Shown here in pieces: positions 12,383 to 29,401 of a DNA stretch of 47,689 nt. The notes below the pieces were generated by a model. That model searched no databases. It was not told the origin of the DNA and worked only from the letters and a program-made list of their open reading frames with translations. The DNA is from a virus: positions 1 to 47,689 of IMG/VR virus record IMGVR_UViG_3300044993_000286. One strand, 5' to 3'. A program made the position numbers and the translations under genes. Each line of letters opens with the position of its first letter. Position 1 is the stretch's first letter.

Positions 12383-12403
12383 AAGTATTCCTTTGTTAAT
12401 ACA

Positions 12404-12423: not shown

Positions 12424-12434
12424 CTGCAAATTGA

Positions 12435-14632: not shown

Positions 14633-14633
14633 G

Positions 14634-15191
14634 TTATATCACCGGTTCGTTATCTGATTCGGGGAAAGGAACAGATTCATCATCAGACAGCTTAGGAGTG
14701 TATTTATACACTTTGTCTTTCGACACATCTTTTATGAATTTCTGTTCCAATTTAAGCATGTCTTTATCGAAATTTGAATATGTCCGATAAAGCTCTTCAC
14801 CGTTATCTTTAGTCGAGAGATATTTCAGAACATAAATTTCTTTCTCGATGCATTTTTGCCATACATCATCGGGAATTCTTCCCGCATCATCGGTCTCAAA
14901 TTTAAGACCCGGATTACATGCAAGAATAAATTCCTTGATTTTGAAAGCACTTCCCCATCCTTCCACTACATTATTGATATTCTTTTTGTAATTACCGTCA
15001 ATAAAGAGTTTTGAAGTTTGTGTTGTACCGTCTTTCTTTTCTCTTTCAATATCAATTTCAAGAGAAATATCCACCATCTTACCGCTATTTGGGTTAGTAC
15101 GAAACATTGTTACTTCAATGTTCTTAACCGTAAAGGGCATAATGATGTATTTGGATTTCTTAAATCCGCTATCAATACTACTAACAGCCAT
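14634..15191 (-). CDS. putative single-stranded DNA-binding protein (185 aa)
   Basis: It lies between the helicase and the Sak4-like ATPase. The acidic C-terminal tail (SDDESVPFPESDNEPVI) resembles SSB / T7 gp2.5 tails. No canonical OB-fold motif was verified. Confidence 0.35.
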   Translation of the reverse strand: MAVSSIDSGFKKSKYIIMPFTVKNIEVTMFRTNPNSGKMVDISLEIDIEREKKDGTTQTSKLFIDGNYKKNINNVVEGWGSAFKIKEFILACNPGLKFETDDAGRIPDDVWQKCIEKEIYVLKYLSTKDNGEELYRTYSNFDKDMLKLEQKFIKDVSKDKVYKYTPKLSDDESVPFPESDNEPVI

Positions 15192-15208
15192 TGTAGATTC
15201 CTTTCTTT

Positions 15209-15922
15209 TTATGAGTTGTATTCGTTGATTTTATCCAAGATAATTTTGAGGTCGTTTGGTTCTTCAAAATCGAGTTGGTCTATGGGAGATTTAGCGGTAT
15301 TAGTACCATCGGAATTAGTAACGACATAGTACTCAAGCTTTCCGTTTGCTTTTCTTGATTGACCAAGAAGTACATTGGTAAACATACCTTCTATGGTGAT
15401 TTTTTCGTCAAGCATTTTACCGATAGTTTTAGCTTTGATAATACCGTCTGAACTTTCAGCATGATGCAGAAAAACAACGGTAATATCATCTCTTAATTCT
15501 TGTGCAGTAGTAAGAACAAGAAAAAAGTTTTGTCCTATTTCGCTGAATTTTTCGTATCCTTTTTCTTTTGCTCTTGCCATGAACTCATACGCCATTAAGT
15601 ATTGCGAATCATCTATGATGATTGTTTTTATATGAGTCAATCGTTCACTGATAAGTTTAAGAGTTTTACTGACCGTTTCGGAAGCTTCCATGAATACTTT
15701 GGGATTTTTCTTCATGGTCTCAGGTCCAACTGCTTGTTTGAATATAATCTTTCGGTTTCCCTGAACCTCTCCGTGAGATTCAAAATACTTAGACCTCCAG
15801 TTTTTAAACGGGAGGTCTTTGTTAATTATTGAAATCAGATAAGTTGTTTTCGGGTCAAGATTACGGATTGATGTTGTCTTTCCGCAACCCGACGGTCCGA
15901 TGTACAGAATACTTCTGCTCAT
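15209..15922 (-). CDS. Sak4-like / AAA_24-type P-loop ATPase (recombination or replication accessory)
   Basis: N-terminal Walker A (ILYIGPSGCGKTT), Walker B (TIIIDDSQYL), and a size and context typical of phage Sak4-like ATPases. Strong SD GAAAGGAG. Confidence 0.6.
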   Translation of the reverse strand: MSRSILYIGPSGCGKTTSIRNLDPKTTYLISIINKDLPFKNWRSKYFESHGEVQGNRKIIFKQAVGPETMKKNPKVFMEASETVSKTLKLISERLTHIKTIIIDDSQYLMAYEFMARAKEKGYEKFSEIGQNFFLVLTTAQELRDDITVVFLHHAESSDGIIKAKTIGKMLDEKITIEGMFTNVLLGQSRKANGKLEYYVVTNSDGTNTAKSPIDQLDFEEPNDLKIILDKINEYNS

Positions 15923-16898
15923 CTTTTTGCTCCTTTCTTTTTAGTTTTGTACATGATTTACAAGTTTTAGAATTTGTGGGTACAAATATAGCACTACACT
16001 CATCACAAATTTTATATCCGTATTCTTCCGTAATGCTTTCTGCCCATTCTGTGATTAATTTTTCGGAAAAATATGAAGTAATTTTTACACATTCATACTT
16101 GTCATTTTTTATATTCCCGTATCGATAAATTGGAATATTCGGATTATGTGAACCATTAGCCATGTCTATCACAAGCTTGTCTATGTAATACACTTCAGGA
16201 TAGAATAATTTCGGAGTTGAAAATCCAAAATCATCAAATTTTGGAATATAAACCGTATTCCTTTTAACAGCGGGAGTGTGAGGTAAATGGATGTCCTTAT
16301 AGGTATTAAAGAATTGTCTGAACAGCTTAATTTGAACTTTTAATTCATTCAAATTAGCAAATGCATCCAAGCTGTGATAATCGTAATAACATACTCCAAA
16401 ATTGAATGCTTTGCATCCTAAATTTGTCAAGTATGATATATCCGATATCGAACCTATTCCTATTCTGAATCCTGCATCTATTAATAAGTTACGAGTATCA
16501 GTATCATCAAAAGAATACAGAACGACATCATTTCCTTTTCTGTCAAATTCAAATATCCAATTATATTTCTTATCGGTTTTGAATTCTTTAGCGGATGAAT
16601 TTCCCTGCTCTTCATCCGTTGTAAGTAATATGTCATAAGGCAAATCAAACAATTCTTCCATAATAACATATACACCTAAACGGTCATCCAATACGGGTGA
16701 ATAAAATACATGTTTGTGTGGAAATTTTACTTCTATAGCATGTGTACATTTACACACACTATCGAGATGGGCTACCGCAAGGATAACTCCACCTCTGTCC
16801 CAAAATAGGTTTCTTCCTTGTTTAAGCAAAGAGGGATACTTCGTAGTGAAGTCCTTCTCCGGAAGAAACATCAGTTCTTTCATTTTTTGTATATCCAT
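15861..16898 (-). CDS. putative co-catalytic metallohydrolase (M20/M28/M42-like) with a C-terminal zinc ribbon
   Basis: Ordered motifs VAHLDSV (HxD), PVLDDRLGVYV (D), TTDEEQG (EE) and YYDYHS (H). The C-terminus has CDECS...CKSC. Confidence 0.45.
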   Translation of the reverse strand: MDIQKMKELMFLPEKDFTTKYPSLLKQGRNLFWDRGGVILAVAHLDSVCKCTHAIEVKFPHKHVFYSPVLDDRLGVYVIMEELFDLPYDILLTTDEEQGNSSAKEFKTDKKYNWIFEFDRKGNDVVLYSFDDTDTRNLLIDAGFRIGIGSISDISYLTNLGCKAFNFGVCYYDYHSLDAFANLNELKVQIKLFRQFFNTYKDIHLPHTPAVKRNTVYIPKFDDFGFSTPKLFYPEVYYIDKLVIDMANGSHNPNIPIYRYGNIKNDKYECVKITSYFSEKLITEWAESITEEYGYKICDECSAIFVPTNSKTCKSCTKLKRKEQKDEQKYSVHRTVGLRKDNINP

Positions 16899-18216
16899 TT
16901 TTTCCTTTCTTCAAATATTCTTTTGTTACGAATCCTTCTCCTTCTGCATCTCTGAATATAACCGCATCTTCCCGAAGTATATATTGATGCATTATGTGGC
17001 TGTAAATAAGGTCTTCAGTCCATTCCAATTGTCCGTTTACGGTCATTGCATAAGATGGTCTTACATAAATACCATGTCTTTTGATAAAGACTATTTTACC
17101 TGCTTTCAGCATTTCTTCGATTATATCAGGATGGCAGAGTTGAGTAGGTCTGTCTTCGGTTGTCCATACATTATAAGGATGAAACGAAAGTTTTTCCGAA
17201 AATGCGCATTGCTTAACAAGTTTAACACACTGTTGACATAATGTATGTTCTTCATTGTCAACAATTTTCGTAACAAAATTTTGCGGTGTATCTTCTTCTC
17301 CACAATGAGTGCATTTAATTCGAACAATATCCGTATTCAAATCAATGGAAGCAATTTCGGAAGCATCATCGGAAAATAAATATCCGTGACCTTCTTCATT
17401 AATCCAAATACGGTCTTTCGCATGTCCCTTGTTAATCAAGGTAATATACTCAAAGTCCGTATCCAGAAATTCAGATATTGCTTCTTTGAGATTAAACAAA
17501 GTGAGGTTTTTACCGTTAAAATAACCGTTAAAGAGAATATAACCTCCGTTTGTTCTCTCAAATAACCAACATCTTCCGAGAGTATAACCTTCCATATATA
17601 AATGAGTATGGTCGGTTAAGAATTCAGCGGGAGGATTTTTCTTATAAAACAACAGAGCTTTGAATTTTTCATTACTTATTATCGTTTCTCTCGCATCAAC
17701 ACGACCGTTCCAAAAACAGGAATTGGAATCTCCGTATTCACCCGCAAGCCATATTTTTTCTTTTCTCGGATTAAAGACTCTGAAATATATAATCGTCTCT
17801 CCCTCTTTCGAATCAAGAACATTTCCTATTTCGGAAAGTTCTTTTTGTGTAAGCTTATAGTTCCATAATTTATGAAACCATTTTGAGATTTGTCTGTTAA
17901 GTCTTACACCTTTCGAATTCCTGTTTTTTTTAAGATTGGGAAACTCTTCCAAATCGATTGATACATCTAATATTGTTTTTGGATTGTTGTAGATGTACAC
18001 TTGAGCCAATGACTCTAAATCTTTCCCGTAAATCTCTTTGTACCATTTCCCAATCGGATGAGTGGTAAGATTATCGGTAGTTATTGGCGGCATTGTTGAG
18101 AAAATATTTCTCATTATACTGAGACACATATCATACAATGTTTTATATCTTTTCTCAATTGCCGAATTACTTTTCACAGTTAACGGATATACAATGTTTT
18201 CTTCTAAGATTTTCAT
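16822..18216 (-). CDS. hypothetical protein (464 aa) with an internal Cys4 zinc ribbon
   Basis: SD GAGGAG. Contains CTHCGEED...CQQC. No family recognised. Confidence 0.7.
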   Translation of the reverse strand: MKILEENIVYPLTVKSNSAIEKRYKTLYDMCLSIMRNIFSTMPPITTDNLTTHPIGKWYKEIYGKDLESLAQVYIYNNPKTILDVSIDLEEFPNLKKNRNSKGVRLNRQISKWFHKLWNYKLTQKELSEIGNVLDSKEGETIIYFRVFNPRKEKIWLAGEYGDSNSCFWNGRVDARETIISNEKFKALLFYKKNPPAEFLTDHTHLYMEGYTLGRCWLFERTNGGYILFNGYFNGKNLTLFNLKEAISEFLDTDFEYITLINKGHAKDRIWINEEGHGYLFSDDASEIASIDLNTDIVRIKCTHCGEEDTPQNFVTKIVDNEEHTLCQQCVKLVKQCAFSEKLSFHPYNVWTTEDRPTQLCHPDIIEEMLKAGKIVFIKRHGIYVRPSYAMTVNGQLEWTEDLIYSHIMHQYILREDAVIFRDAEGEGFVTKEYLKKGKNGYTKNERTDVSSGEGLHYEVSLFA

Positions 18217-18556
18217 CTTTTTTTCTCCTCATGTAGTTTATATATTCTTTTAAAAGTTCAAATATTCTCTCCAATTCAGTATCAACTGTATCATCAAACC
18301 ACTTAGTTTTTTCCGTAATATAGTTATATCTTACAATATGTGGAACAATGATAGAGTTTGTTTCGGGAAAATATTCAATATTTTCTTCACTGTATTTTTC
18401 CAAATAAACATCCAACGATATTTCTTCCATATTAAAATCATAGCAAATCGTATTCACCGAAAAATAATACATAGACATCGAAGATTGATTGCTTATCCAT
18501 TCTTCAACTTTATGATGAAGATTACGAATATCATTTTTTTTTATTTCGATTTTCAT
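18167..18556 (-). CDS. hypothetical protein, tandem paralog family member 1 (129 aa)
   Basis: Aligns by eye with 18553..18903: MKIEIKK / MEIEKRK, YYFSVNTIC / YSYSVGNTC, EYFPETNSIIVPHIVRY / EWFPEKDKIVIPYICKY. Confidence 0.65.
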   Translation of the reverse strand: MKIEIKKNDIRNLHHKVEEWISNQSSMSMYYFSVNTICYDFNMEEISLDVYLEKYSEENIEYFPETNSIIVPHIVRYNYITEKTKWFDDTVDTELERIFELLKEYINYMRRKKDENLRRKHCISVNCEK

Positions 18557-18903
18557 TTTAATATCCTTATCTCTTTGGTAAGAATTCTAAACATTCTTCT
18601 GATTTTCTCAATTTTTTCTTCATCTACAAATTGTGTTGTAAAAGAAAGAATATGAGTATTTACATCATACTTACAGATATAAGGAATGACTATCTTGTCT
18701 TTTTCAGGAAACCATTCGGGATTTTTACGAAGAATATGTTTATATTCTTCTATCGGCATAATCGGTGGTGTTCTGCCACGAACATGACAAGTATTACCTA
18801 CCGAATAACTGTAAGTATTCATTTCAGCTCTTTTCAGAAGCCAGTTATAAAGAGCTTCTTCGGTAATTTCTTTAATGGGTTTTTTCCTTTTTTCTATTTC
18901 CAT
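18553..18903 (-). CDS. hypothetical protein, tandem paralog family member 2 (116 aa)
   Basis: See 18167..18556. ATGA overlap. Confidence 0.65.
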   Translation of the reverse strand: MEIEKRKKPIKEITEEALYNWLLKRAEMNTYSYSVGNTCHVRGRTPPIMPIEEYKHILRKNPEWFPEKDKIVIPYICKYDVNTHILSFTTQFVDEEKIEKIRRMFRILTKEIRILK

Positions 18904-19325
18904 GATTGTTTCCTTTCATGGATGTAAGAAACGATTAAATTCTTATTTTCATTAAGGATATCATGAACGATATACTTATATCTTCGAGCAATAGGTTCTA
19001 ACCGTCTCGATATCCAATAATCGACACTGACTCTTATCGGTTTATTCCTTATGGGAAAACCTTTATAATCAGTTTCGATATAGATTTCCAACAACGTTAT
19101 CGGTTCATTATAATTTTTCGGTTGATAAATAAGATGATACCGATAAACATTTGTTGTATTACTTACCTTTTTTATTTGCAAGGTATCGCGGTTATAACGA
19201 AATACCCTTCGTTCAACCGCTTTTAATTTTATATATTGATTCAATACATCCGTCATTTCTGCCGGAGTATAGAAACAATATATTGTTTTTCCTTTTCTAT
19301 TTTCAATTTCCATATCTTTCCTCAT
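18894..19325 (-). CDS. hypothetical protein (143 aa), possible distant third member of the paralog family
   Basis: It shares only the N-terminal MEIENRKGK motif with the two downstream paralogs. Alternative start at 19313. Confidence 0.6.
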   Translation of the reverse strand: MRKDMEIENRKGKTIYCFYTPAEMTDVLNQYIKLKAVERRVFRYNRDTLQIKKVSNTTNVYRYHLIYQPKNYNEPITLLEIYIETDYKGFPIRNKPIRVSVDYWISRRLEPIARRYKYIVHDILNENKNLIVSYIHERKQSWK

Positions 19326-19458
19326 TTTTTCTTTTTAAGTACTCGATAAATTCATTGACTCTTTTAAATGTTCTTTTTGATTTAAGTTTATTTGAAACAT
19401 TATATTCTTTTACTACAAATTTACCTAACCAAAAAGATATTACGAATCTTTTGTTCAT
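19303..19458 (-). CDS. small basic hypothetical protein (51 aa), below the ORF-track length cutoff
   Basis: Hand translated: MNKRFVISFWLGKFVVKEYNVSNKLKSKRTFKRVNEFIEYLKRKNEERYGN. SD AAAGGAAAA. The stop overlaps the next start. Confidence 0.35.
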   Translation of the reverse strand: MNKRFVISFWLGKFVVKEYNVSNKLKSKRTFKRVNEFIEYLKRKNEERYGN

Positions 19459-19478
19459 TTTTTTCCTTTCAATTGAAA

Positions 19479-19520
19479 TAAAAAAAAGGCTCCTACTTGA
19501 AATATTTCTTTCGGAGCCTC
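19479..19520 (-). terminator. rho-independent terminator (minus strand)
   Basis: The minus strand reads aggctcc-N19-ggagcct followed by TTTTTTTT. It lies directly after gene 19539..20042. Confidence 0.6.
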
Positions 19521-19538
19521 ACCATACAACCGGAGAAA

Positions 19539-20042
19539 TTATGACTCTAAAATTCTTTTCACTTCCCCGATTATGTCGTTTTCTCCCCTTTCTATCAAAT
19601 CCATATACTTTTTCAGTATATGGATATTTACCGGCATATTTGCAAAGTAGTCAGGGTCTTTATCCTGAGCTACTAATGCAATAACCGATAGATTATCGAG
19701 GAGAAATTCCAGCGTTTCCTGAACTGATTTTTGAAGAGTCTTGCATGCTTTTACTGCATGCGAATATTCTTTTAACCAGTATTGTTCCCTTTCCGGGAAC
19801 ATTTGGAAGAGTATTTTCGTGCAATCAACCATTTCTTTGGTTTCTTGCACTTTTTGCTCGTCTGTCTTATCGAACAGAATAATATTCTGTTCTTCTAAAG
19901 ACAAACTATTGAAAAACATGAGTTCTAACAACTTTGCAGGTGTTAGAGACTCTATAATTTTGTAAAATTGTTCTTTTGTCAGTTTTAGTACTGACACCAA
20001 TAGTGTCAGTACCTCAACCGAAAAATTATTCAACTTATCCAT
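19539..20042 (-). CDS. hypothetical protein (167 aa)
   Basis: The start was set at MDKLNNFSVE after the SD AAGGGGGAA. ATGGATAA overlap with the upstream gene. Confidence 0.6.
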   Translation of the reverse strand: MDKLNNFSVEVLTLLVSVLKLTKEQFYKIIESLTPAKLLELMFFNSLSLEEQNIILFDKTDEQKVQETKEMVDCTKILFQMFPEREQYWLKEYSHAVKACKTLQKSVQETLEFLLDNLSVIALVAQDKDPDYFANMPVNIHILKKYMDLIERGENDIIGEVKRILES

Positions 20043-20328
20043 TTTGTTCCCCCTTTTTTTCTTTTTTGGGTGTGTGAAACTGTAACGCGTCATACGCATC
20101 TACCCATGCGTCGTGACGCGAATTTGCTTTCTCCTCTTCCAGGTGATTTTCAATCACCCAGAAGATATATCCCGCAATTCCTGCGAGGAATATTGCCGCA
20201 GAAGTTACAAGTATTGCTTCATTAGCTGGGACCGGTATGTCCCACATTTCTACAAGCTTTTGGAAAAGCTCGAAGAGAGCGATAAATATTATCGATTCTA
20301 TGATTACCAGTTTATGTATTCTTTTCAT
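20035..20328 (-). CDS. hypothetical membrane protein (97 aa, two hydrophobic helices)
   Basis: Hydrophobic segments LVIIESIIFIALFELF and ILVTSAAIFLAGIAGYIFWVI. SD context AATCGGAGAA. Confidence 0.6.
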   Translation of the reverse strand: MKRIHKLVIIESIIFIALFELFQKLVEMWDIPVPANEAILVTSAAIFLAGIAGYIFWVIENHLEEEKANSRHDAWVDAYDALQFHTPKKEKKGEQNG

Positions 20329-20366
20329 TTTTTTCTCCGATTATTTTTGGTTTGTGATTTTGTTAG

Positions 20367-20480
20367 TTATAGTTCTGCTGCTCTTACGATTTGTATAATG
20401 AAAAACGTAATTGCAGTCAAAATACCCAATAGCCCGAAGGCTATTAATGTTCCGAGTAACACTTTATCCTCTTTATCCAT
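20367..20480 (-). CDS. small single-pass membrane peptide (37 aa), below the ORF-track cutoff
   Basis: Hand translated: MDKEDKVLLGTLIAFGLLGILTAITFFIIQIVRAAEL. SD context AATCGGAGAA 7 nt upstream. Confidence 0.4.
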   Translation of the reverse strand: MDKEDKVLLGTLIAFGLLGILTAITFFIIQIVRAAEL

Positions 20481-20591
20481 GTTTTCTTTCTCCGATTTTT
20501 GATTAGTTAATAGCGAGGGGCGACATCTTTCAAAAGATGTCATTATTTGTAAATAAAGCCTCTATAAGCCACGATTTTTCCAAAGGGTATA

Positions 20592-20657
20592 TAAATGTAT
20601 GCCTTTGAATCGTTCGTGTCTCTATGAGGCTCTAATGAAGAAATTGGGCTATATTTG
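20592..20657 (+). promoter_or_regulatory. conserved R element copy R1 (candidate promoter), oriented antisense to the surrounding early genes
   Basis: TAAATGTATGC-N20-TATGAGGCTCTAATGAAGAAAT aligns without gaps to 34149..34214, down to a TTG at the position of the endolysin ATG. Confidence 0.5.
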
Positions 20658-20670
20658 ATTGCTGTCTTTT

Positions 20671-20700
20671 ACAAAATAGGGGCATTATTCAAATGCCCCT
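20671..20700 (-). terminator. rho-independent terminator (minus strand)
   Basis: The minus strand reads aggggcat-ttgaata-atgcccct followed by ATTTTGT. Confidence 0.6.
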
Positions 20701-20710
20701 TAAATATCAA

Positions 20711-20781
20711 AAGCTACTGCCTTACTAATGTCAGCAAACTCTTACCACATGGTAAGTACTGACTTCAGGTCAGTAGCTTTA
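20711..20781. other. 71-nt rod-like imperfect hairpin in noncoding DNA
   Basis: The outer 10-bp stem is aaagctactg / cagtagcttt. Inner stems are gtcag/ctgac and cttacc/ggtaag. Confidence 0.5.
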
Positions 20782-20782
20782 T

Positions 20783-20849
20783 AAATTGAAAAAGCCGTTG
20801 AACTATTTTCAGCACTCCCCAATTTGGGGGCTGATAAGAACAACGGCTT
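20783..20849 (-). terminator. compound hairpin terminator (minus strand) after the second early gene
   Basis: aagccgttg (20792-800) pairs with caacggctt (20841-49) around an inner tcagc..cccc/gggg..gctga hairpin. On the minus strand it is followed by TTTTTCAATTT. Confidence 0.55.
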
Positions 20850-20889
20850 ATTAAATGAGCAGTTTATAGACTTGCTCAGGTCTTAAAGA

Positions 20890-21555
20890 TTATTCCTCCT
20901 CCTCCTCTATTAGTCTAAAATTATGTTCTGTTAATTGCATGTTGTTTTCTTTGTCGATTTCTATGGTCGTAATGATGACCATGTCCTCAACTTCAAGAAT
21001 TTGTGTCGAATTGAATAATGGGTATAAACCCATTTTTATTTTCAATTCGTCTTTTTTAATTAAGATTGTTTGAAGTCGTTTCACAGATACTGCAGGATTT
21101 CTTAAAACGCATGCCGGTTGTGTTTCCACGATAACACATTTGCTGTTCGACATTTTTATTTCTAACAATCCAAATGTGGGTCTAAAACCCAGCACTGATT
21201 TTGCGTATTTAATATACGCAAAGCAGTCTTGAGTTGGGAAAAGAGGTGCAATTTGAACATATCTGGGTAGGAATTGTTTGATGAATTTTAACGGTATTTT
21301 CCCTAACCCAACAAACCCTTGAAGTTCGGTTTCGTATTGGTAAAAGTTTTTTGATTCTTCCTCGATGAGTATTAACTCCCCACTGAGGCAATAAACCCCA
21401 TGGGGAAGTTTTCTATTGTCGAAGGTTACAATAGGACGTCGCCCATTTAATCCGGTAATGTTGAATCCGTACTCCGGAGTTATTAACTCCAGAGTTGTTC
21501 TATCGTTCAATGATGATAAGTTGCGAATAAGTTTTTTATATTCTTGCATTTTCAT
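20890..21555 (-). CDS. hypothetical early protein (221 aa) with an acidic EEEEE C-terminus
   Basis: SD context AATCGGAGAA. Second gene after the divergent control region. Confidence 0.7.
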   Translation of the reverse strand: MKMQEYKKLIRNLSSLNDRTTLELITPEYGFNITGLNGRRPIVTFDNRKLPHGVYCLSGELILIEEESKNFYQYETELQGFVGLGKIPLKFIKQFLPRYVQIAPLFPTQDCFAYIKYAKSVLGFRPTFGLLEIKMSNSKCVIVETQPACVLRNPAVSVKRLQTILIKKDELKIKMGLYPLFNSTQILEVEDMVIITTIEIDKENNMQLTEHNFRLIEEEEE

Positions 21556-21605
21556 GGCTTTCTCCGATTGTTTTTTTGTTGATTGTTTTTTGTTAATTAA
21601 TTGAC

Positions 21606-21677
21606 AGCCCCCGAAAACCCTTTTGTGTGGAATCCAGGGGCTATCGAGTTCATACGGGGAAGAATTACTTCTTCCCC
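21606..21677 (-). promoter_or_regulatory. two GC-rich hairpins between the first two early genes
   Basis: agcccc (21606-11) pairs with ggggct (21637-42). ggggaagaa (21656-64) pairs with ttcttcccc (21669-77), and the stop codon of 21665..21922 lies in that loop. No U-tracts. Confidence 0.4.
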
Positions 21678-21922
21678 ATATAGAGGGACATATCCGCTCG
21701 GTTTTCCCAAGCAGATTCGAGCCTTCTGCGTGCTTCCTCTATACTTATATCTTCGCACGCCAAGAGTCGATACTCAAAAGACGAACCATTGTAAACGTAG
21801 AGCCCTTTGAGTTTTTCACCATCCTTCGTGGTTTCCCAATCGAAAAGACAAACTATCTCTTTCCCCGTTTGTCTATCAATTGTCTTTATCGCACCACGAG
21901 TTCTTAGTCGTTGTGGCACCAT
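21665..21922 (-). CDS. first early gene product, hypothetical (85 aa)
   Basis: Very strong SD AAGGAGGT 7 nt upstream. It is the first ORF downstream of the divergent region and looks richer in G+C than its neighbours. Confidence 0.7.
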   Translation of the reverse strand: MVPQRLRTRGAIKTIDRQTGKEIVCLFDWETTKDGEKLKGLYVYNGSSFEYRLLACEDISIEEARRRLESAWENRADMSLYMGKK

Positions 21923-22006
21923 TTTTTACCTCCTTTTTTTTAACTGAATTAATTAATTATCAAAGACAAAGGGGTGGGTAGGTGGAAGGGATATTTCCCG
22001 CCTCAA

Positions 22007-22035
22007 GTCTTACACAATTTTTATCGTTTTTTCAA
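22007..22035 (-). promoter_or_regulatory. candidate sigma70-like promoter for the early block (TTGAAA-17-TAAGAC)
   Basis: On the minus strand, TTGAAA is the reverse complement of 22030-35 and TAAGAC of 22007-12, with a 17-nt spacer. The -10 lacks the final T. Confidence 0.3.
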
Positions 22036-22155
22036 CGGTTGAAACGATTTTTTCGGAGTGTTGTAGGACTGTATCAACCCGCTATTAACAAAATTTTAAA
22101 AAATATTTTTTAGGGCAAAAATTCGTACACTTATCATTTTTTCTTGCATATAGTC

Positions 22156-22184
22156 TTGACAAAAGTTATTTTTGCATATAAGAT
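22156..22184 (+). promoter_or_regulatory. candidate sigma70-like promoter for the late block (TTGACA-17-TAAGAT)
   Basis: TTGACA at 22156-61 and TAAGAT at 22179-84, with a 17-nt spacer. About 140 nt upstream of the small terminase start. Confidence 0.4.
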
Positions 22185-22221
22185 TTCCCCCCGCAAGGAA
22201 AAACATATATTAGAACTAATA

Positions 22222-22325
22222 CTTATATAAGTATTGTTATATAGAATATCTTATATAGAATACTTAATACTAAGACTTATATAGGATATCCGAATAAGAA
22301 TACTTAAAGACTTAAGACTTATATG
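22222..22325 (+). repeat. AT-rich direct repeats (CTTATATA x4; longer unit AGAATACTTAA..TAAGACTTATAT x2) running into the small terminase start codon
   Basis: CTTATAT(A/G) at 22222, 22250, 22276 and 22318. The 27-29-nt units are at 22257-22283 and 22297-22325. Confidence 0.7.
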
Positions 22326-23018
22326 ATAGTACATAATAAGAAGATTGGTAAGAGATTATGGAAGAAATGTTATGCTTATACTATAGAAGAAGCTAAAGAA
22401 AGAGGATTAGAATGGAAAGACTTAAGAGATGAAGAAATAAGTGAATATGTTAAGACTGATGATGATTATATAGTAAAGTTAATACTGAAGAAAAGATATA
22501 ACAAAGACTTATGGATTAAAACAGAATTTGGTAGTATATTTGGAAGACAGAAATTGTTAGTTAATAAAGAATTAATTCCTTACGGTGATTGGAAAGCTAA
22601 AAAGCTTACAAAAAAGAAAAGATTTCCGATTGTAGTGGATTACATAGTAGCATGTATTTTAACGAATAGCACTATTAATCCCGATGTTATCGGTAATATC
22701 TTGGGATTGAAATATCGAAATACTAATTTGATTTGGAAGAATCTTATGAATCAACCTGAAGTAAGACAAATGGTACAAAAATCTTTAGTTGAAAGACTGT
22801 CGGATTTAAATGTTGACGAAGGTAAAGTGGTGAATTTAATAGATGATGCGATAGTAATTGCCAAAAAGAAGGGAAATGCTTTTGCTATTCTTAAAGCTGC
22901 TGAATTGTTGGGCAAATATTTAGGAATGGATGCTAAAACTGTTATCAGAGAGACTCATTCGACTGACAGTGAAGGCAATATTTCGAAGATATTAAAGGAA
23001 ATATCGATTGAAGGATAA
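22323..23018 (+). CDS. putative terminase small subunit / DNA-binding protein (231 aa)
   Basis: It lies immediately upstream of, and overlaps, the large terminase gene. It is a basic protein of suitable size. No SD. The call is by position only. Confidence 0.4.
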   Translation: MIVHNKKIGKRLWKKCYAYTIEEAKERGLEWKDLRDEEISEYVKTDDDYIVKLILKKRYNKDLWIKTEFGSIFGRQKLLVNKELIPYGDWKAKKLTKKKRFPIVVDYIVACILTNSTINPDVIGNILGLKYRNTNLIWKNLMNQPEVRQMVQKSLVERLSDLNVDEGKVVNLIDDAIVIAKKKGNAFAILKAAELLGKYLGMDAKTVIRETHSTDSEGNISKILKEISIEG

Positions 23019-24462
23019 GCTTTTAGCTCATTTTGACAAACATTTATTGGATTACGGCAAGGTAATTACAAAATCTTTTTACTATAAACCTTCCGAAGCA
23101 CACTACGAAATGGAAAAAATTCTCCTGGATGACGAAAAAAAGCAGTGTAATATCGTTGTTCCGAGAGGATTGGGGAAAACTACCATAGTGGGTGAGATAT
23201 ATCCCTTATGGCATATCTTCATTCATAAGCCTGAAATGCCAAAATTAGTCATAATAGTCTCAAAAACACAGCAACATTCATTGGACCGTATCAGACGAAT
23301 CAAGGATATTCTCGAATATAACCAAAATTTTAGAACTTTACACGGTTATCACGGTGAACAAAATGCAGTTATTTGGAGAGAAGACCGAATTATTCTTGAT
23401 AATGGCAGTACGATTATAGCAAGAGGACTTTTACAACCTTTAAGAGGGTTAAATATTAACGGTGTAAGACCTACTTTAATCGTTTTAGACGACCCTGAAG
23501 ACGAAGGAAACACAAAAACTGATGAAGCGATGGAACAAAATTTGACTTGGTTGCTTCAGGCTGCACTTCCTTCTATGGATATCAGGTATCACAAAGTAGT
23601 GGTAATTGGTACTCCGCTTAATCAGAAGTGTTTGGTAATGAAATTATCGGAAATGTCCGATTGGACTACTTACAAAACTTCTTATATTGTCGAAGAAAAC
23701 GGTGTAAGAAGGTCTATATGGGAAGAAATGAGGTCTTTGGAGTCTTTGGATGCTCTTATGAACTCTTATAAAGAGATTGGAAGACTTTCAATGTTTTACA
23801 AAGAGTATATGTGTACTGTTATAGGCGATGAAGACCAAATATTTAAGCCTGAATACATACAATTTGCCGATTATAAATACGAAAATATTGACGGAATGGG
23901 GTTTATTGTTATGGACGATAAACAAATACCCGTGAATGTTTTTATGGGTGTTGACCCGGCTTCTTCCACGAAACAAACAGCGGACTATTCCGTTATTTTT
24001 CCCGTCGCTATTGACTCTGAAAAGAACAGATATGCTCTTCCTTACTTCAGAAAGAGAGTAAAACCTATGGAATTAACCAGAGCAATAGTTGAATGGTACT
24101 CAAAATATAAACCTCAGAAAGTCAGGATAGAAACTGTTGGCTATCAGGAAATGATTAGGGATTATTTAAGAGAAGAGACTTATATTCCCGGCATGGAAAT
24201 AAAAGAAAATCCGAGAACAAGTAAATCCGCAAGATTAGAATCAATGGAACCGATGTTTGCTTCCAAAAAGGTATTTTTAACAAGAGATATGCAGGAATTT
24301 GTGGATGAATTGCTTGCTTATCCGAGAGGAAAACATGATGATTTACTCGATGCTTGGTATTATGCAAATAAAAATGTTTATATTCCATACCATGAAGCAA
24401 CAAACTACTTGACAAAAAAAGAAAATAATGTTATGTTGCAATTGGATTGGAGAATTTTATGA
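23008..24462 (+). CDS. terL: terminase large subunit
   Basis: ATPase motifs VVPRGLGKTT (Walker A-like) and PTLIVLDDPED (Walker B). RNaseH-like nuclease motifs FMGVDPASS, DYSVIF and KHDDLLDAWYYA. Confidence 0.9.
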   Translation: MKDKLLAHFDKHLLDYGKVITKSFYYKPSEAHYEMEKILLDDEKKQCNIVVPRGLGKTTIVGEIYPLWHIFIHKPEMPKLVIIVSKTQQHSLDRIRRIKDILEYNQNFRTLHGYHGEQNAVIWREDRIILDNGSTIIARGLLQPLRGLNINGVRPTLIVLDDPEDEGNTKTDEAMEQNLTWLLQAALPSMDIRYHKVVVIGTPLNQKCLVMKLSEMSDWTTYKTSYIVEENGVRRSIWEEMRSLESLDALMNSYKEIGRLSMFYKEYMCTVIGDEDQIFKPEYIQFADYKYENIDGMGFIVMDDKQIPVNVFMGVDPASSTKQTADYSVIFPVAIDSEKNRYALPYFRKRVKPMELTRAIVEWYSKYKPQKVRIETVGYQEMIRDYLREETYIPGMEIKENPRTSKSARLESMEPMFASKKVFLTRDMQEFVDELLAYPRGKHDDLLDAWYYANKNVYIPYHEATNYLTKKENNVMLQLDWRIL

Positions 24463-26759
24463 ATCATTACTCATTACTCACCGGCAAAGAAGAAGAAATT
24501 CCCGTAATCGATATCGGAAATGATGTTGATGAAGAAGCAGAACTTACCAAAAAGTTATTTGAACAATACAAATCAGCTCAAAGTGAATGGGCATATCAGG
24601 TATCCGAAGACAGAAATTTTGAAAACGGAATACAATGGACCCATGAACAAGAACTTGAGCTGAAAAAAAGAGGTCAGGCTGCGATAGTAGTCAATGTTAT
24701 TAAACCTGCAGTAGAGCAAGTAGTGGCTCTTTTAACCGCTAATAAACCCAGATTTGCGGCTACGGGCAGAGAAGACAGTGATACTAAAACGGCAAAAGTA
24801 TTTGCGGATATATTGGCTTATATATGGGAAAGAAGTAAAGGAAATGCAATTTTCAAAAAAACCATAAGAGATTATTACACTAAGGGAAGAGGTCATTTAT
24901 TGGCTTATTATGACCCTAATGATGATTTCGGCAAGGGTGAAATTAAAATTGCTTATGTTGACCCTTTAGATGTATATCCCGACCCTAATTCAAAAGACCC
25001 TCATTTTGCGGATGCAGCACACATAATCATACATCAAGTGCAAACATCGGAGCAGATACAAGCTCAATATCCGGGAATACTTCAAATATTAAGCGGTTTA
25101 CAAACCACAATGGAAAACGGAAACAAATATTCTTCTACAAGAATTAATTCCGATACCGCTCAGGATGTAATTGATAGTTATTCGGATACTTATCACAACA
25201 AATACGATGTATTTGAAAGGTATTCAAAAGTACAGTTTAACACTTACAGATTATCCGAACCGATGAGTAATTGGGAAGAAGTGGATATTACTGACCAAGA
25301 ATTACCCGATGTACTTCAAAGACAGGTATTTATTTTAGTACGGGAGAATCAACCACAACCCATTGTAAAGCCTGAAGATATTGAAATGTTTTCAAAGCTT
25401 TATGAGCAGGTAGGAGAGATATTCCATTATGAGATGCAAATTGACCCAAATACGGGACAACCTAATCCTCAAGCGGAACCAATACCTGTTTCGGGACAGG
25501 AGACAGGACAGAATCCTGCTGAGATTCCGAATTCCACTCAGCAGTTAATTCCCGTACCGATGCAAACATTGATTGAACAGCAAATGATTATTGTTAATAC
25601 ATATACAGCTGTTAAAATTCAAAGAGTCATATCAATAGCAAATACAACGATATTTTCTACGGTTCTCCCTATCTCTTCTATCCCGCTATTAACTTTATGT
25701 AATCATCATAACAACAATCCTTATCCGATGAGTGATGTAAGATTTGTAAGACCTATTCAGGAATACATCAACAAGATAAGGTCATTAATCATAGCACATG
25801 CCGCAAATTCAACAAATACTAAGTTGTTAATACCAAGAGGAGCCGTTGATAAAAAACAACTTGTCGAAGAATGGGGAAGAGCGGGAACGGGAGTTATTGA
25901 ATTTGATGCTGAATTGGGAATGCCTATTGTAGCGGGTCCTATTCCGTTGCCTAATGAATTGTATAAAAATGAAATTGATGCAAGAAACGATATAAGAGAA
26001 ATTCTTGGTGTATATCCGTTGCAACAGGGAGATTCTTCCGATGCTCCTCCTACTTACAGAGGAATAGTTTCATTGGATGAATTTGGTCAAAGAAGAATCA
26101 AATCTAAACAAGCGGACATTGAAGCGGCTCTTACTGAATTTGCAAAAGTTCTTGTTGAAATGATTCAAAATTATTATGATTCGCCGAGAGTTTTCAGATT
26201 GCTTGACCCATCGGGAATAATCAGAGAAACTAAAATTAATATTCCTTATGATGGTGTTGACCAATCAATGAAATACAGATTAAATGATGTTACCGTAGGA
26301 CGATATGATGTTGTTGTAGTGTCAGGTAGTATGCTTCCGTCTAACAGATGGGCACAACTTGAATACTATATGGAAATGTACAAAATGGGTCTTATTGACA
26401 GACTTGAAGCTCTTAAGAAAACTGAAGTTGTGGATATTGAAGGCGTTGAATCTCGTATGAATGAATTGCAACAAGCACATCAATACATAAAACAACTTGA
26501 AGATGAACTTGCACAAATCAAAGGTGATTTACAAACCGCTCATCGTGAAGCAGTAGCGGCTAATAAACGAGTTGAAGTTGAGAAATTTAAAAGCAGACTT
26601 TCGGAAATGCAATCTATGGGTAAATCGGTTCAGGAACTTTATTTAAAGAGAATGCAAGATGAACTGAATATGAATACCGAAAGATTGCGAATGAATATGC
26701 AATTAGACAGAGAACGATTAAAAAACAAAACCAAAGGAAAATCCAATGCCAGAAAATAA
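24459..26759 (+). CDS. portal protein (766 aa)
   Basis: It lies directly after terL with an ATGA overlap. The ATG at 24459 with the SD GGAGAA is preferred over the TTG at 24447. The size and the long C-terminal coiled coil (ELQQAHQYIKQLEDELAQIKGDLQ...) are typical of podovirus portals. Confidence 0.7.
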   Translation: MNHYSLLTGKEEEIPVIDIGNDVDEEAELTKKLFEQYKSAQSEWAYQVSEDRNFENGIQWTHEQELELKKRGQAAIVVNVIKPAVEQVVALLTANKPRFAATGREDSDTKTAKVFADILAYIWERSKGNAIFKKTIRDYYTKGRGHLLAYYDPNDDFGKGEIKIAYVDPLDVYPDPNSKDPHFADAAHIIIHQVQTSEQIQAQYPGILQILSGLQTTMENGNKYSSTRINSDTAQDVIDSYSDTYHNKYDVFERYSKVQFNTYRLSEPMSNWEEVDITDQELPDVLQRQVFILVRENQPQPIVKPEDIEMFSKLYEQVGEIFHYEMQIDPNTGQPNPQAEPIPVSGQETGQNPAEIPNSTQQLIPVPMQTLIEQQMIIVNTYTAVKIQRVISIANTTIFSTVLPISSIPLLTLCNHHNNNPYPMSDVRFVRPIQEYINKIRSLIIAHAANSTNTKLLIPRGAVDKKQLVEEWGRAGTGVIEFDAELGMPIVAGPIPLPNELYKNEIDARNDIREILGVYPLQQGDSSDAPPTYRGIVSLDEFGQRRIKSKQADIEAALTEFAKVLVEMIQNYYDSPRVFRLLDPSGIIRETKINIPYDGVDQSMKYRLNDVTVGRYDVVVVSGSMLPSNRWAQLEYYMEMYKMGLIDRLEALKKTEVVDIEGVESRMNELQQAHQYIKQLEDELAQIKGDLQTAHREAVAANKRVEVEKFKSRLSEMQSMGKSVQELYLKRMQDELNMNTERLRMNMQLDRERLKNKTKGKSNARK

Positions 26760-27597
26760 CGCAAATGTCAATGCCGACCAAATACAAGACTTATTTGGTT
26801 CGATTGACGAATCTTATGTTCCGCAACAAACGCAAGAGTCTGACAGACCGACTGAAATGTTAGTGGAATACCCTGAAGAGGTTGCTGCACAACCGGAAGA
26901 GGGACAACCTGCAAATACGGCTGATGAAAGATACAGATATTGGCAAAGTCAGCATGATAAATTACAAGCTGAACTTGCTGCCTATAAACAGTATTTGCCG
27001 ATGATACAATTCATCAATCAAAATCCTGAAGCGCTTACTTTATTACAGCAGCAAATTGTTGAAAAACAATTTCCTAAAAATCCCGAAGAAGAGCTTGTTA
27101 TGCCAAAAGCTCCCGTAAGACCCGAAGGTTACAATGATTACGATGCTTATAACGAGCCTGATTCTCCTTCGTTTAAATACAGGGTTGAGAGAGATGAGTA
27201 CAATGTGCAGCTAAACGAATATCTGGTTAAAAAAGACAGATATCGTGAACAAGCTTACATTGCTCAACAGCAGCAATTAGCTTTTGAGCAACAGCAAAAA
27301 CAAATTATGCAACAAACTTATCAAATGCTAACGGCGCAGTACGGGCTTAACCAAAATGAAGCTCTTGAGTTTGTTCAAATGTTCAGTGATAATCGGTCAA
27401 TTAATATGGATAATTTGGTTGATTTATACAGGCTTAAAAAAAGGCAAATTGCTGAACCTAATTATCAAGCTCAACGCAAATGGTCTCCTGTACCTCCCGT
27501 TGCACAAACAACAATGCAAGTTAACAGAAATTATTCCGATGAACAAAGATTTAATGATTCGTTAGGTCTTTATAGTTGGAAAAATCAAAGGAGATAA
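26746..27597 (+). CDS. putative scaffolding protein (283 aa)
   Basis: It lies between the portal and major capsid genes. The sequence is Q/E-rich and helical (IAQQQQLAFEQQQKQIMQQ). Confidence 0.5.
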   Translation: MPENNANVNADQIQDLFGSIDESYVPQQTQESDRPTEMLVEYPEEVAAQPEEGQPANTADERYRYWQSQHDKLQAELAAYKQYLPMIQFINQNPEALTLLQQQIVEKQFPKNPEEELVMPKAPVRPEGYNDYDAYNEPDSPSFKYRVERDEYNVQLNEYLVKKDRYREQAYIAQQQQLAFEQQQKQIMQQTYQMLTAQYGLNQNEALEFVQMFSDNRSINMDNLVDLYRLKKRQIAEPNYQAQRKWSPVPPVAQTTMQVNRNYSDEQRFNDSLGLYSWKNQRR

Positions 27598-27600
27598 AAT

Positions 27601-28953: not shown

Positions 28954-28964
28954 GGAGGTAATCA

Positions 28965-29366: not shown

Positions 29367-29370
29367 ACGA

Positions 29371-29389: not shown

Positions 29390-29401
29390 AATTTATACAT
29401 T

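Follow-up and report, generated by a model that had tools for sequence, protein, structure and literature searches.

The reading that we favour, at a probability of roughly 0.4, is that R1 is one copy of a non-coding junction cassette. The cassette is about 100 bp long and would occur in a few copies at the junctions of transcription units or modules, comparable to the PeSLs of T4. Its structured leftward RNA would attenuate, process or stabilise the transcript, and the element would also be a mark of module exchange. The window is the whole stretch of viral DNA that was analysed (47,689 nt), and it belongs to a group of uncultured podophages whose hosts are probably Ignavibacteriaceae. If the cassette reading is true it gives a first look at early-transcription punctuation in an uncultured podophage lineage. 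The same structured repeat would then mark the exchange points of orphan and lysis genes, and the PeSL idea would extend beyond the T4-like phages. If a rival is true instead, R1 would be a compact timing device, acting as an antisense promoter or an anti-leader RNA. Under all readings there is a defined motif of about 100 nt, two boxes and a hairpin, with which new genomes can be scanned. The coordinates are collected in Table 1.

Table 1. Features in and around R1 and its related copies (window coordinates).
Feature	Coordinates	Strand	Basis or remark
R1, the studied copy of the R cassette	20556..20660	+ (strand as in the R2 alignment)	ungapped identity to R2; nhmmer homologues
R2	34117..34217	+	last codons of the 90-aa gene, then 64-nt leader, SD and ATG of the endolysin gene
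Endolysin (amidase)	34212..34775	+	PHROG 822, E = 1e-13; PF01510 in homologues
R3, doubtful third copy	8707..8783	-	in a 102-nt gap before a 65-aa TM-protein gene (8476-8673)
Box A, TCTATAAGCCACGAT	20561..20575	+	conserved across lineages
Box C, GAGGCTCTAATGAAGAAAT	20626..20644	+	best-conserved stretch, pattern GAGGCTCTAA(T/A)GAAGAAAT
Pseudo ribosome-binding site and start, TGGGCTATATTTG	20645..20657	+	aligns with the endolysin SD and ATG
Central cassette hairpin, 17 pairs	20573..20615		consensus fold of orthologues
35-codon ORF of the preliminary description, judged non-coding	20655..20762	+	TTG start; overlaps terminator hairpins 1 and 2
Tandem array of four hairpins	20678..20878 (20678-20700, 20711-20782, 20792-20850, 20856-20878)	-	folds z = -8.9 (minus), -7.8 (plus)
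Promoter-proximal early unit	20890..21922	-	85-aa gene (21665-21922) and 221-aa gene (20890-21555)
Next leftward unit, headed by R1	19539..20480	-	37-aa TM peptide (20367-20480), 97-aa two-TM protein (20035-20328), 186-aa protein (19539-20099)
Small perfect hairpin	20522..20541		a little to the left of R1, within the next leftward gene's leader
Intrinsic terminator, GGCTCC...GGAGCC then T8	19480..19518	-	closes the 37-aa/97-aa/186-aa unit; gap 19459-19538
Back-to-back sigma-70-like promoters	22133..22184		rightward for the late operon, leftward for the early block

The preliminary description placed R1 on the plus strand in a non-coding gap of the minus-strand early block. That placement is correct, and the gap is 409 nt long (20481-20889). 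A BLASTN search of 20501-20800 against the window returns one non-self match, between 20583-20644 and 34140-34201 (75.8% over 62 nt, E = 0.002). The ungapped alignment is longer. R1 20560-20659 and R2 34117-34216 are identical at 67 of 100 bases without any gap (z = 9). The genome-wide background for ungapped matching of R1 is 27.1 +/- 4.4 per 100, and the best genome match of shuffled R1 (n = 300) averages 47.2 +/- 1.3 with a maximum of 51/100. The offset of the alignment is 13557, which sets the TTG at 20655 opposite the endolysin ATG at 34212. This bears out the claim that the similarity runs through the leader up to these two codons. It begins at about 20560, some 30 nt to the left of where it was first said to start, and in R2 it extends into the final nine codons of the upstream 90-aa gene. 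On this alignment, R1 and the endolysin leader sequence of about 100 bases are true paralogues. The third copy is marginal, since R3 scores 52/100 against the shuffle maximum of 51 and nhmmer gives it E = 0.2. R3 and R1 have CTTATAAGCC and GGTATAAATGTAT in common, and R3's own 17-bp hairpin sits in a different register.

It had also been suggested that R1 could drive a 35-codon ORF starting at the aligned TTG. No counterpart of this ORF exists in the relatives: L001/L015 read ATG-AGG-TAA, and L005 and L013 differ. Short ORFs inside R were rejected as a general identity too, with neither length nor sequence conserved and about 8 non-synonymous changes against 1 synonymous in the best frame of the R1-R2 comparison. 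The L001 and L005 copies also carry GGG/GAGG and a start codon, and the ORFs behind them are not conserved.

A profile of R1 and R2 finds copies in several relatives with nhmmer. The copy in L005/6/7/13 (E about 1e-3) has a 117-aa gene on one side and, on the other, a TM-protein gene and a 187-aa gene, a position syntenic with R1. The 186-aa protein of the window and the 187-aa protein of L005 are 28% identical (E = 4e-5) and both have a TM protein and an R copy upstream; the early genes to the right of the L005 copy are unrelated to those of the window. The copy in L001/L015/L033 (E = 4e-6) sits in the divergent early/late control region. The L107 copy (E = 3.7e-7) is inside the late operon and on its opposite strand, with a tRNA on one side and a 124-aa gene on the other. 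The genomic sites differ between lineages, and in 4/4 of them the homologous copy is reverse-complementary to local transcription and stands just ahead of the next gene. The claim that R1 is reverse-oriented to the early block is upheld, and it extends to the homologues. Given this shared orientation in four lineages, R1 is a maintained element and not noise. It must be noted that the four known lineages represent about three independent placements, and the probability of a shared reverse orientation by chance is about 0.25.

The boxes of the cassette, TnTAAGnCnCGA and GAG(G/C)CTCTAA(A/T)G, flank the central hairpin. Box A is 14/15 identical in L001/L015 (TCTCTAAGCCACGAT), and its counterparts are TTATAAGCCTCGAT in L107, CTTCTAAGACACGAA in L005 and CTTATAAGAGACGAA in R2. 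The 18 bases of box C at 20627-20644 are identical in L001/L015, and L107 has GAGCCTCTAAAG. The box C 17-mer occurs at 57 loci in IMG/VR, where the only true relatives are L015 and L016, and a longer R pattern has no match in the JGI metagenomes. One can imagine that R1 is a functionless relic of a duplication upstream of the endolysin, or a recombination scar. There is no gene behind it, its SD/start region is decayed relative to both R2 and the L001 copy, and the genome has two clear copies only. However, boxes A and C and the hairpin are kept in four lineages between which the neighbouring proteins have identities of 28-59% or cannot be aligned, and the conservation of the boxes outlasts that of the flanking 186/187-aa proteins. 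Elsewhere in the early region, alignment between the window and these genomes is lost in the intergenic DNA. We regard a relic as highly improbable.

The hairpin makes the same kind of argument through its base pairs. A consensus fold of the orthologues has 22 pairs, with 88.6% of cells paired as opposed to 28-50% when the partners are slid, and 9/22 of the pairs show compensatory double changes. On the four R1-type sequences the paired fraction is 88-90%. When five sequences from the four lineages are taken in the locally transcribed sense, the fold has 26 pairs with 82% of cells paired (28-50% slid). Ten of its pairs have compensatory double changes, a result reached by 1/500 shuffles. On these comparisons the R hairpin is kept by compensatory changes. 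The preliminary description had offered a short structured RNA as a fallback, and this stands in part: a hairpin with compensatory changes is indeed there. Against the cassette reading, the consensus folds have little energy (-3 to -14 kcal/mol), and the registers partly shift between lineages. Fold z-scores for the local and the other strand are -4.15 and -4.07 in the window, -4.25 and -2.08 in L005, -0.64 and +0.61 in L033, and -2.14 and +0.46 in L107. Predicted structure relative to shuffles is better on the locally transcribed strand (leftward in the window) in 4/4 lineages, with the two strands of the window near-equal, and the L033 copy alone is not significantly structured. Of the 22 consensus pairs R1 keeps 18, R3 14 and R2 13. 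Since R2 keeps so few and is oriented with its own gene, R1 and R2 cannot have exactly the same job, which counts against the cassette reading. R2 has no significant RNA structure (z = +0.5 and -1.1), and a structure common to R1 and R2 was sought and rejected, with consensus energies of -4.6 and -0.4 kcal/mol. Rfam 15 gives no gathering-score match in the whole window and only chance-level matches in 20400-21000. No tRNA was found in the window.

R1 directly follows the leftward terminator array of the first early unit and precedes the next leftward unit. The z values of the array come from a fold of 20660-20890, and each hairpin was also folded singly. T runs follow hairpins one to three (20678-20850) on the minus strand only, and the terminator scan flags hairpin 1 as a minus-strand terminator. 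From these signals we read the array as the leftward terminators that end the first early unit. Because the early block would be transcribed leftward, the RNA made from R1 would be its reverse complement, folded into a long, imperfect hairpin with a U-rich stretch behind it. To the 3' side of the hairpin the leftward RNA has GAGGCUUUAUUUACAAAU in the window and GGCUUCUUUUAACAAUAA in L005, and the U tract is absent from the L033 copy. Compared with an intrinsic terminator, a GC-rich stem-loop with a U tract right behind it, leftward R1 has the long imperfect hairpin (z = -4.15) and then CUUUAUUUAC, or CUUCUUUUAAC in L005, with an atypical loop and stem. The reverse complement of R1 is not among the calls of the terminator scan. 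We suggest that the R1 RNA punctuates the early transcript, either as an attenuator or as a signal for processing or stability. It would separate the immediate-early from the delayed-early unit and give the second of these its 5' region. We count it against the cassette reading that R1, coming after three terminators, seems superfluous as a fourth.

The position of R1 could also be that of a promoter region. A promoter is to be expected between the end of the terminators (20678) and the start of the next gene (20480), a space that R1 mostly fills. In such a scenario the 37-aa/97-aa/186-aa unit would have a leftward promoter with R1 as part of its upstream control region. This region would be bound by an activator or repressor regardless of orientation, and the likeness to R2 would come from shared sites. 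The perfect palindrome CTTATAAG, present in R2 and R3, is in favour of this. A leftward candidate, TTTACA-17-AAAGAT (20553-20525), does lie just left of R1 with a -10 that is one base from the TAAGAT of the late promoter, but it is weak and falls below the scan threshold. In L005 there are 28 nt from R to the next start codon, which leaves no room for a promoter downstream. A similarity of 100 nt that reaches the start codon far exceeds the length of an operator, and the covariation of the hairpin is left unexplained. We think this scenario is quite improbable. The 186-aa protein of the unit has no match in Pfam, PHROG or the PDB sequences. An identical Logan contig, L027, gives the same gene calls.

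R1 is closer to R2 (67%) than to its orthologues (53-60%), and the difference is sharpest in the middle third, where the figures are 67% and 30%. This excess requires either recent copying or gene conversion, or a functional coupling of the two sites. The cassette reading needs no coupling, and it would explain the resemblance by common descent of one cassette rather than by a shared promoter. In the anti-leader RNA model, the reverse complement of R1 in the early leftward mRNA would pair in trans with the endolysin leader in R2. The main duplex would cover -29 to -11, by the SD, and as a result translation would be blocked or RNase III cleavage set off. Lysis-gene expression would in this way be coupled to falling levels of early mRNA, or vice versa. 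The relative amounts of early and late transcripts would then set the timing of lysis-enzyme synthesis or of early-mRNA decay, and the antisense regulator would be part of an mRNA that lies 13.5 kb away from the target. Gene order suggests that leftward transcription of R1 is necessary when the downstream replication genes are expressed. The predicted duplex of the R1 reverse complement with R2 has -75.7 kcal/mol versus -24.5 +/- 6.2 for other late-strand windows, and predicted in-register helices of 10 and 8 bp fall at 34183-34201, beside the SD. The pseudo SD and start codon are kept without a conserved ORF, and the L001 copy matches the leader, SD and ATG of the window's endolysin at 29/32. 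There is a proposed precedent as well, an antisense RNA at the endolysin gene of phage PAK_P4 (review PMC12197685).

We nevertheless judge this antisense pairing to be unlikely. L107 is the sole relative in which both copies are visible, and there the reverse-oriented copy and the endolysin leader are about 38% alike over the shared part. This implies that pairing is not a conserved property. The transitions between R1 and R2 show no wobble excess, with 7 compatible and 9 incompatible. The leftward path meets three terminators before R1. Holins set the time of lysis, so the translation of an endolysin rarely needs to be delayed. R is missing from the endolysin leaders of other relatives, L022-25 and L029-32, and the corresponding junction in L041 is without R and has a downstream gene unrelated to the endolysin. 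Known phage antisense RNAs (P22 sar, lambda OOP, P1/P7 c4 and PAK_P4as15; PMC12197685) resemble R1 in combining a complement to an initiation region with a stem-loop. However, they have their own promoters and are encoded opposite the target (in cis) or within the target's operon, whereas the complement in R1 lies 13.5 kb away inside an early mRNA and its complementarity is not kept in L107.

The preliminary description took the R elements for promoters, with R1 firing antisense into the early genes as a built-in switch. R would then be a promoter-plus-leader module read with a phage-specified factor. R1 would fire rightward through the hairpins, antisense to the 221-aa and 85-aa genes and towards the late operon, and would shut off the early genes by antisense RNA or by polymerase collision. 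Intergenic gaps are rare, and R2 and possibly R3 do occupy such gaps immediately 5' of a gene on their own strand; the other copies face against the local genes in 4/4 lineages. Four strong hairpins separate R1 from the early genes in question, though those hairpins have no T runs on the plus strand and need not halt rightward transcripts. [quoted passage not shown] P001 is proposed to block transcription that would enter the early genes at late times of infection (PMC10914365). P001 and R are alike in that an element upstream of a late gene is repeated against the surrounding genes and conserved among relatives (PMC10914365). P001, however, is a promoter motif of 20 bp with near-identical copies, serves a known phage RNA polymerase and has a mapped transcription start (PMC10914365), and R has no detected polymerase and no conserved promoter motif. 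The near-identical motif of about 20 bp at several sites upstream of genes that marks a P001-type promoter family is not seen for R: box C occurs just twice in the genome within 3 mismatches (20626-20644 and 34183-34201), and box A is not enriched, with 3 matches against 2.9 expected.

A recognisable promoter is what this reading lacks. Sigma-70 scans for a TTGACA-like -35 and a TATAAT-like -10 (A at 2, T at 6) with 16-18 nt spacing covered 19800-22600 and, at 10/12 or better, the whole genome. They find no site on either strand of 20556-20660, and R1 contains no recognisable promoter. The same scans recover the late-operon promoter, TTGACA-17-TAAGAT at 22156-22184 (rightward), next to which is the early-block promoter TTGTCA-18-AATGAT at 22162-22133 (leftward). 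The rightward promoter is conserved as TTGACA-17-TA(T/A)AGAT in L001, L005, L028 and L033, and L005 also has the back-to-back pair. The late operon already has a conserved sigma-70-type promoter of its own, which is a further point against the antisense promoter. A Bacteroidota-type TAnnTTTG promoter was rejected as absent, the conserved late promoter being of the ordinary TTGACA type. The idea that R1 points towards the late operon is not conserved either: the L107 copy is on the strand opposite the late genes and faces away from those downstream. Predicted structure favours the strand opposite to the proposed antisense transcript in three of the four lineages.

Other promoter types do no better. 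TATAAATG, found in R1 and R3, matches 7/8 of the T4 late -10 element TATAAATA, and we count this in favour of the antisense promoter. It is, however, the apical loop (20590-20597) of the covarying hairpin, and it varies between lineages, with TATCAAAG at this position in L001, GGTAATCC in L005 and GGTAAGAT in L107. A T4-type late promoter was rejected for R, as TATAAATG is only in R1 and R3 and R2 has GGTAAATG. The best-conserved stretch, box C, is downstream of the TATAAATG motif. Pfam, PHROGs or both detect no sigma factor or RNA polymerase in 46 proteins or segments. Neither a phage RNA polymerase nor a gp55-like sigma factor is among the matches, and most of the early proteins have no detectable family, so a divergent factor may be present. 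The giant protein of 3018 aa (45620..7114) has no Pfam, PHROG or PDB-sequence match above the cut-off; its sub-threshold Pfam match is PF18994 Prophage_tailD1 (E = 2.8e-4, 21.4 bits, cut-off 23.6). N4-type hairpin promoters have a stem of 5-7 bp and a 3-nt loop, and this identity was rejected for an R hairpin of about 17 pairs. An invertible promoter was rejected too: the inverted repeats on either side of R1 (TTTGTAAA / TTTACAAA) are only short and AT-rich, and a recombinase was not detected. On the sequence the antisense-switch idea is unproven rather than refuted, and we consider it rather unlikely.

For the junction cassette the closest comparison is with the PeSLs (promoter-early stem-loops), the composite terminator/promoter repeats of T4-like phages (PMC2839356, PMC4122927). 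Both PeSL and R are short repeated intergenic stem-loop cassettes at gene or unit junctions beside lineage-specific ORFs (PMC2839356, PMC4122927). The copies within a genome resemble each other, and module exchange is proposed for both (PMC2839356, PMC4122927). They differ in that PeSLs have a recognisable sigma-70 early promoter, many copies, and the orientation of the genes (PMC2839356, PMC4122927), whereas R lacks a recognisable promoter and is present only 2-3 times in a genome, with most copies reverse-oriented and one doubling as a late-gene leader and RBS. Of the properties that define a PeSL, R thus has the repeated stem-loop and the lineage-specific or swapped flanking genes and lacks the early sigma-70 promoter.

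Bacterial palindromic intergenic repeats and MITEs such as Correia, ERIC and RUP are about 100 bp long, form hairpins, occur in either orientation, are co-transcribed with neighbouring genes, and sometimes provide an RBS or a processing site. R is like them in all of this and in its intergenic site, but no terminal inverted repeats with a target-site duplication and no high copy number were found. Nor was there a transposition signature or a pair of empty and filled sites, which counts against the cassette reading. A true palindrome or MITE was rejected, because gap-free self-complementarity is significant solely for the window R1 (z = 3.2). The template or variable repeat of a diversity-generating retroelement was likewise rejected, with no adenine bias beyond base composition and no reverse transcriptase.

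Like the T4 PeSLs, the R repeats may also be points at which modules are swapped, and genes at two of the junctions are consistent with this. One is the gene for the 221-aa protein to the right of R1, an orphan with only a self-match among 5.8 billion proteins. The other is the endolysin of L107. The 87-aa gene of L107 is 59% identical to the window's 90-aa gene and its 124-aa gene is 54% identical to the window's 122-aa gene. The endolysin that these two genes bracket has no BLAST similarity to the endolysin of the window. In L107, then, the genes on both sides are conserved, and the endolysin between them, which has an R2-like leader, is non-homologous.

R1, the plus-strand copy of the R cassette in the non-coding gap of the leftward early block, is interpreted here as a junction cassette that would act through a structured RNA within the local transcript; in the window this runs leftward. 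We rank this reading first and give it a probability of roughly 0.4. What is conserved in all four lineages (4/4) is the two boxes of R, its hairpin, its position at a junction ahead of the next gene and its reverse orientation. The genomic place of R and its similarity to the endolysin leader are not conserved, and that is the basis of our ranking.

The first and last 127 bases of the window are identical (1-127 = 47563-47689), so the assembly is circularly closed and measures about 47.56 kb. One Logan contig (L027) is identical to it. The genome is of podophage type, with a P22-like portal, an SU10-type capsid protein and a large terminase. It has no close cultured relative, its TerL being at most 27% identical to any GenBank-phage entry. 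Two sigma-70-like promoters stand back-to-back between the leftward and rightward blocks, and the rightward one is kept with its leader in four related contigs (L001, L005, L028 and L033). The late-operon leader (22185-22322) has a conserved TTCCCC...GGAAAAA motif directly after the -10, then 4 copies of (A/T)CTTATATA(A/G)G-like repeats, including a perfect palindrome (CTTATATAAG). These repeats look like operator sites; L001 and L028 have other repeats at the corresponding position. A G-rich part of the leftward early leader (21949-22022, AAGGGGTGGGTAGGTGGAAGGG...) is 79% identical to L005 even though the adjacent early genes are unalignable, and the early transcript may have a conserved leader element here.

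Features of the window around R1, the promoters and the lysis genes
Feature	Position	Strand	Details
R1	20556-20660	+	
R2	34117-34217	+	leader of the endolysin gene
Leftward block	21922 to ~7095	-	early and replication genes, including primase-helicase, RusA, MazG
Rightward block	22323-45593	+	terminase-to-tail genes and lysis genes
Late promoter, sigma-70-like	22156-22184	+	TTGACA-17-TAAGAT
Early promoter, sigma-70-like	22162-22133	-	TTGTCA-18-AATGAT
Promoter-proximal early unit	right of R1	-	85-aa and 221-aa genes
Small hairpin	20522-20541		left of R1, followed by RBS and new leftward unit
Next leftward unit	left of R1	-	37-aa TM peptide, 97-aa two-TM protein, 186-aa protein
Terminator of 37-/97-/186-aa unit	19480-19518	-	the unit's own
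Post-endolysin proteins	34772-36551		122 aa; 146 aa, coiled coil; 87 aa, 2-3 TM segments; 184 aa

The similarity of R1 to R2 claimed in the preliminary description is real. BLASTN of the R1 gap region against the window gives a single non-self match (20583-20644 vs 34140-34201, 75.8% over 62 nt). Aligned without gaps, 20560-20659 and 34117-34216 are identical at 67/100 positions against a genome-wide background of 27.1 +/- 4.4, and the best genome-wide matches of R1 shuffles (n=300) have a mean of 47.2 and a maximum of 51. The similarity starts within the final codons of the 90-aa gene upstream of the endolysin, and TTG 20655 does align in register with ATG 34212 of this amidase-type endolysin. 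Only two genome sites come within 3 mismatches of the best-matching stretch, GAGGCTCTAA(T/A)GAAGAAAT. A third copy, R3 (minus strand, 8783-8707), is marginal (52/100, nhmmer E = 0.2). It is overlapped by a 17-bp hairpin with G-U pairs (AGGUGGUAUAAAUGUAU...AUGUAUUUGUGCCACCU, 8705-8745, minus strand) in a 102-nt gap upstream of a 65-aa TM-protein gene.

TerL homologues of 79-82% identity identify wastewater contigs that share the divergent layout. A search with a profile of R1 and R2 detects R in four lineages, the relatives being partial genomes. In contigs L005, L006, L007 and L013, R fills a gap of 131 nt that has a 117-aa gene on one side and, on the other, a 95-aa TM-protein gene with a 187-aa gene behind it. 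Since the product of the latter shares 28% identity with the window's 186-aa protein, the copy is syntenic with R1. In L001, L015 and L033, R is found within the divergent control region: the first leftward gene is ~175 nt away, and the late promoter is ~135 nt downstream of R. Contig L107 was reached via an 87-aa homologue of the window's 90-aa gene. Its R copy (E = 3.7e-7) is within the late operon on the opposite strand, between a tRNA gene and the start codon of a 124-aa gene. The 60-nt tRNA (4291-4350; Rfam RF00005, 40.9 bits) is immediately before the R copy and was missed by ARAGORN. A weak R2-like leader (E = 0.039) is present in L107 as well, ahead of an Amidase_2 endolysin that has no BLAST similarity to the window's endolysin; the genes flanking it are homologous to the window's (59% and 54% identity). 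The genomic place of R differs among lineages, as does its strand relative to the late genes in L107. The reverse-oriented copy is reverse-complementary to local transcription in four of four lineages and stands 0-180 nt ahead of the next gene, an orientation that is not significant alone since there are only about three independent placements.

The aligned family has a variable middle flanked by box A (TnTAAGnCnCGA) and box C (GAG(G/C)CTCTAA(A/T)G...). Between the window and L001, box A is identical at 14/15 positions and 18 box C bases are identical; the proteins beside R barely align. The middle folds as a hairpin. In the four R1-type sequences it has 22 pairs, 88.6% satisfied against 28-50% in a partner-slid control, and 9 of the 22 pairs have compensatory double changes. 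With L107 added in the locally transcribed sense there are 26 pairs, 82% satisfied and 10 double-changed, a result matched by 1/500 shuffles; we take all the hairpin figures as moderate evidence because the sequences are few and related and the structures were derived from those same sequences. Consensus fold energies are weak. R1 keeps 18/22 consensus pairs and R2 only 13/22, and R2 has no significant structure when its fold is compared with shuffles. In every lineage the fold of the locally transcribed strand is better, when set against shuffles, than that of the other strand (z for local/other strand: window -4.15/-4.07, L005 -4.25/-2.08, L033 -0.64/+0.61, L107 -2.14/+0.46).

To the right of R1 there are four hairpins in 20660-20890 (fold z = -8.9 on the minus strand, -7.8 on the plus). 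Behind each of the first three comes a T run, present on the minus strand alone; for most of the hairpins the minus-strand fold is also the slightly better one. We read those at 20678-20878 as a putative tandem terminator array ending the promoter-proximal early unit. The array, three or four strong hairpins after the 221-aa gene, is unusually heavy for a terminator; two of its hairpins are 60-72 nt and branched, and it has no match in Rfam. A search of 5.8 billion proteins found no homologue of the 221-aa protein. With the early unit closed on the right and a new leftward unit on the left, R1 would sit exactly at the junction of two leftward units. Leftward transcription presumably passes through or starts near R1 because replication genes lie further left. 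That R1 is the upstream control region of a leftward promoter is very unlikely in our estimate, and that it is a relic is less likely again.

The terminator of the next leftward unit starts GAGGCTCCGAAAGAAAT, similar to box C (GAGGCTCTAAAGAAGAAAT); the likeness could be due to chance or to distant kinship. In the leftward RNA the R hairpin is followed directly, on its 3' side, by UUUAUUUACAAAU in the window (20545-20556, minus) and by CUUCUUUUAACAAUAA in L005 (2205-2222). The stretch is reminiscent of boxA antitermination sequences (CUCUUUAACAA), from which that of the host may differ.

R1 had been proposed to be a promoter firing antisense into the early genes. We consider this unlikely, and nothing in the sequence supports it positively. 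The sole promoter-like feature of R1, TATAAATG, is the apical loop of the hairpin and is not kept in other lineages. Neither strand of R1 has a -35/-10 pair, and no sigma factor or RNA polymerase was matched among the proteins scanned. Box C is downstream of the supposed -10 and has two copies only, and the late operon is served by a different, conserved promoter. L107 also shows that the pointing of R towards the late operon is not a conserved trait. In its favour, a phage-specific factor could recognise boxes A and C, no T runs follow the hairpins to the right of R1 on the plus strand, and phage LUZ19 provides a precedent, its early region carrying a phage promoter copy that is antisense and conserved (PMC10914365). 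The 35-codon ORF that R1 had been suggested to drive is judged non-coding: it crosses two terminator hairpins and has no counterpart in relatives (ATG-AGG-TAA at its position in L001 and L015, other ORFs in both L005 and L013).

A leftward transcript of R1 would be complementary to the endolysin leader and could act as an anti-leader RNA. The predicted duplex has -75.7 kcal/mol against -24.5 +/- 6.2 for other windows, with 10- and 8-bp helices at -29 to -11, adjoining the SD. Such an RNA would account for a pseudo SD and start codon kept without an ORF, for R1 being closer to R2 (67%) than to its orthologues (53-60%), for the same pattern in its middle third (67% vs 30%), and for the 29/32 match of the L001 copy to the window's endolysin leader. 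However, the two R copies of L107 are only ~38% alike in their overlap, the R1/R2 transitions lack a wobble-compatible bias (7 vs 9), and three terminators stand ahead of R1 on the leftward path. We judge this quite improbable.

If R1 is a junction cassette, its RNA would serve as an attenuator, or else as a signal for processing or stability, where the immediate-early unit gives way to the delayed-early one. Copies of R would also mark points of module exchange, as at the orphan gene adjoining R1 and where R2-like leaders precede non-homologous endolysins. Among described elements the nearest are PeSL, the composite terminator/promoter repeats of T4-like phages (PMC2839356, PMC4122927). R differs from these in its few copies, its orientation and its lack of a recognisable promoter.

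Three consecutive early genes (18167-18556, 18553-18903, 18894-19325) share an N-terminal peptide, MEIE... or MKIEI..., and look like tandem paralogues of one family whose stop and start codons overlap. Three genes in L005 (3-1074) likewise begin MEIE, and L006 has short DNA repeats at the starts of such genes.

The ORF listed as 281..7114 (2277 aa) really begins at ATG 45620 and crosses the window ends, so that the late operon ends with a 3018-aa protein (45620-47689, then 128-7114). Searches of Pfam, PHROG and PDB sequences gave a single match for it, a sub-threshold one in Pfam (Prophage_tailD1, E = 2.8e-4, under the curated cut-off). L107 has a 5393-aa counterpart in the same position. The protein is a candidate giant virion protein and might be either an ejection protein or an N4-like virion RNA polymerase.

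The endolysin (34212-34775) is 65-66% identical to Ignavibacteriaceae MAG sequences (CP129491.1, CAYSJM010000023.1) and 61-64% identical to endolysins of metagenomic Mu-like phages. Together with the 34.7% G+C of the window, these identities point to an Ignavibacteriaceae host. We know of no cultured phage for this family. The four proteins after the endolysin are membrane or signal-anchored and are probably the holin/spanin part of the lysis cassette. L107 has conserved counterparts of three of them, the 122-, 146- and 184-aa proteins.
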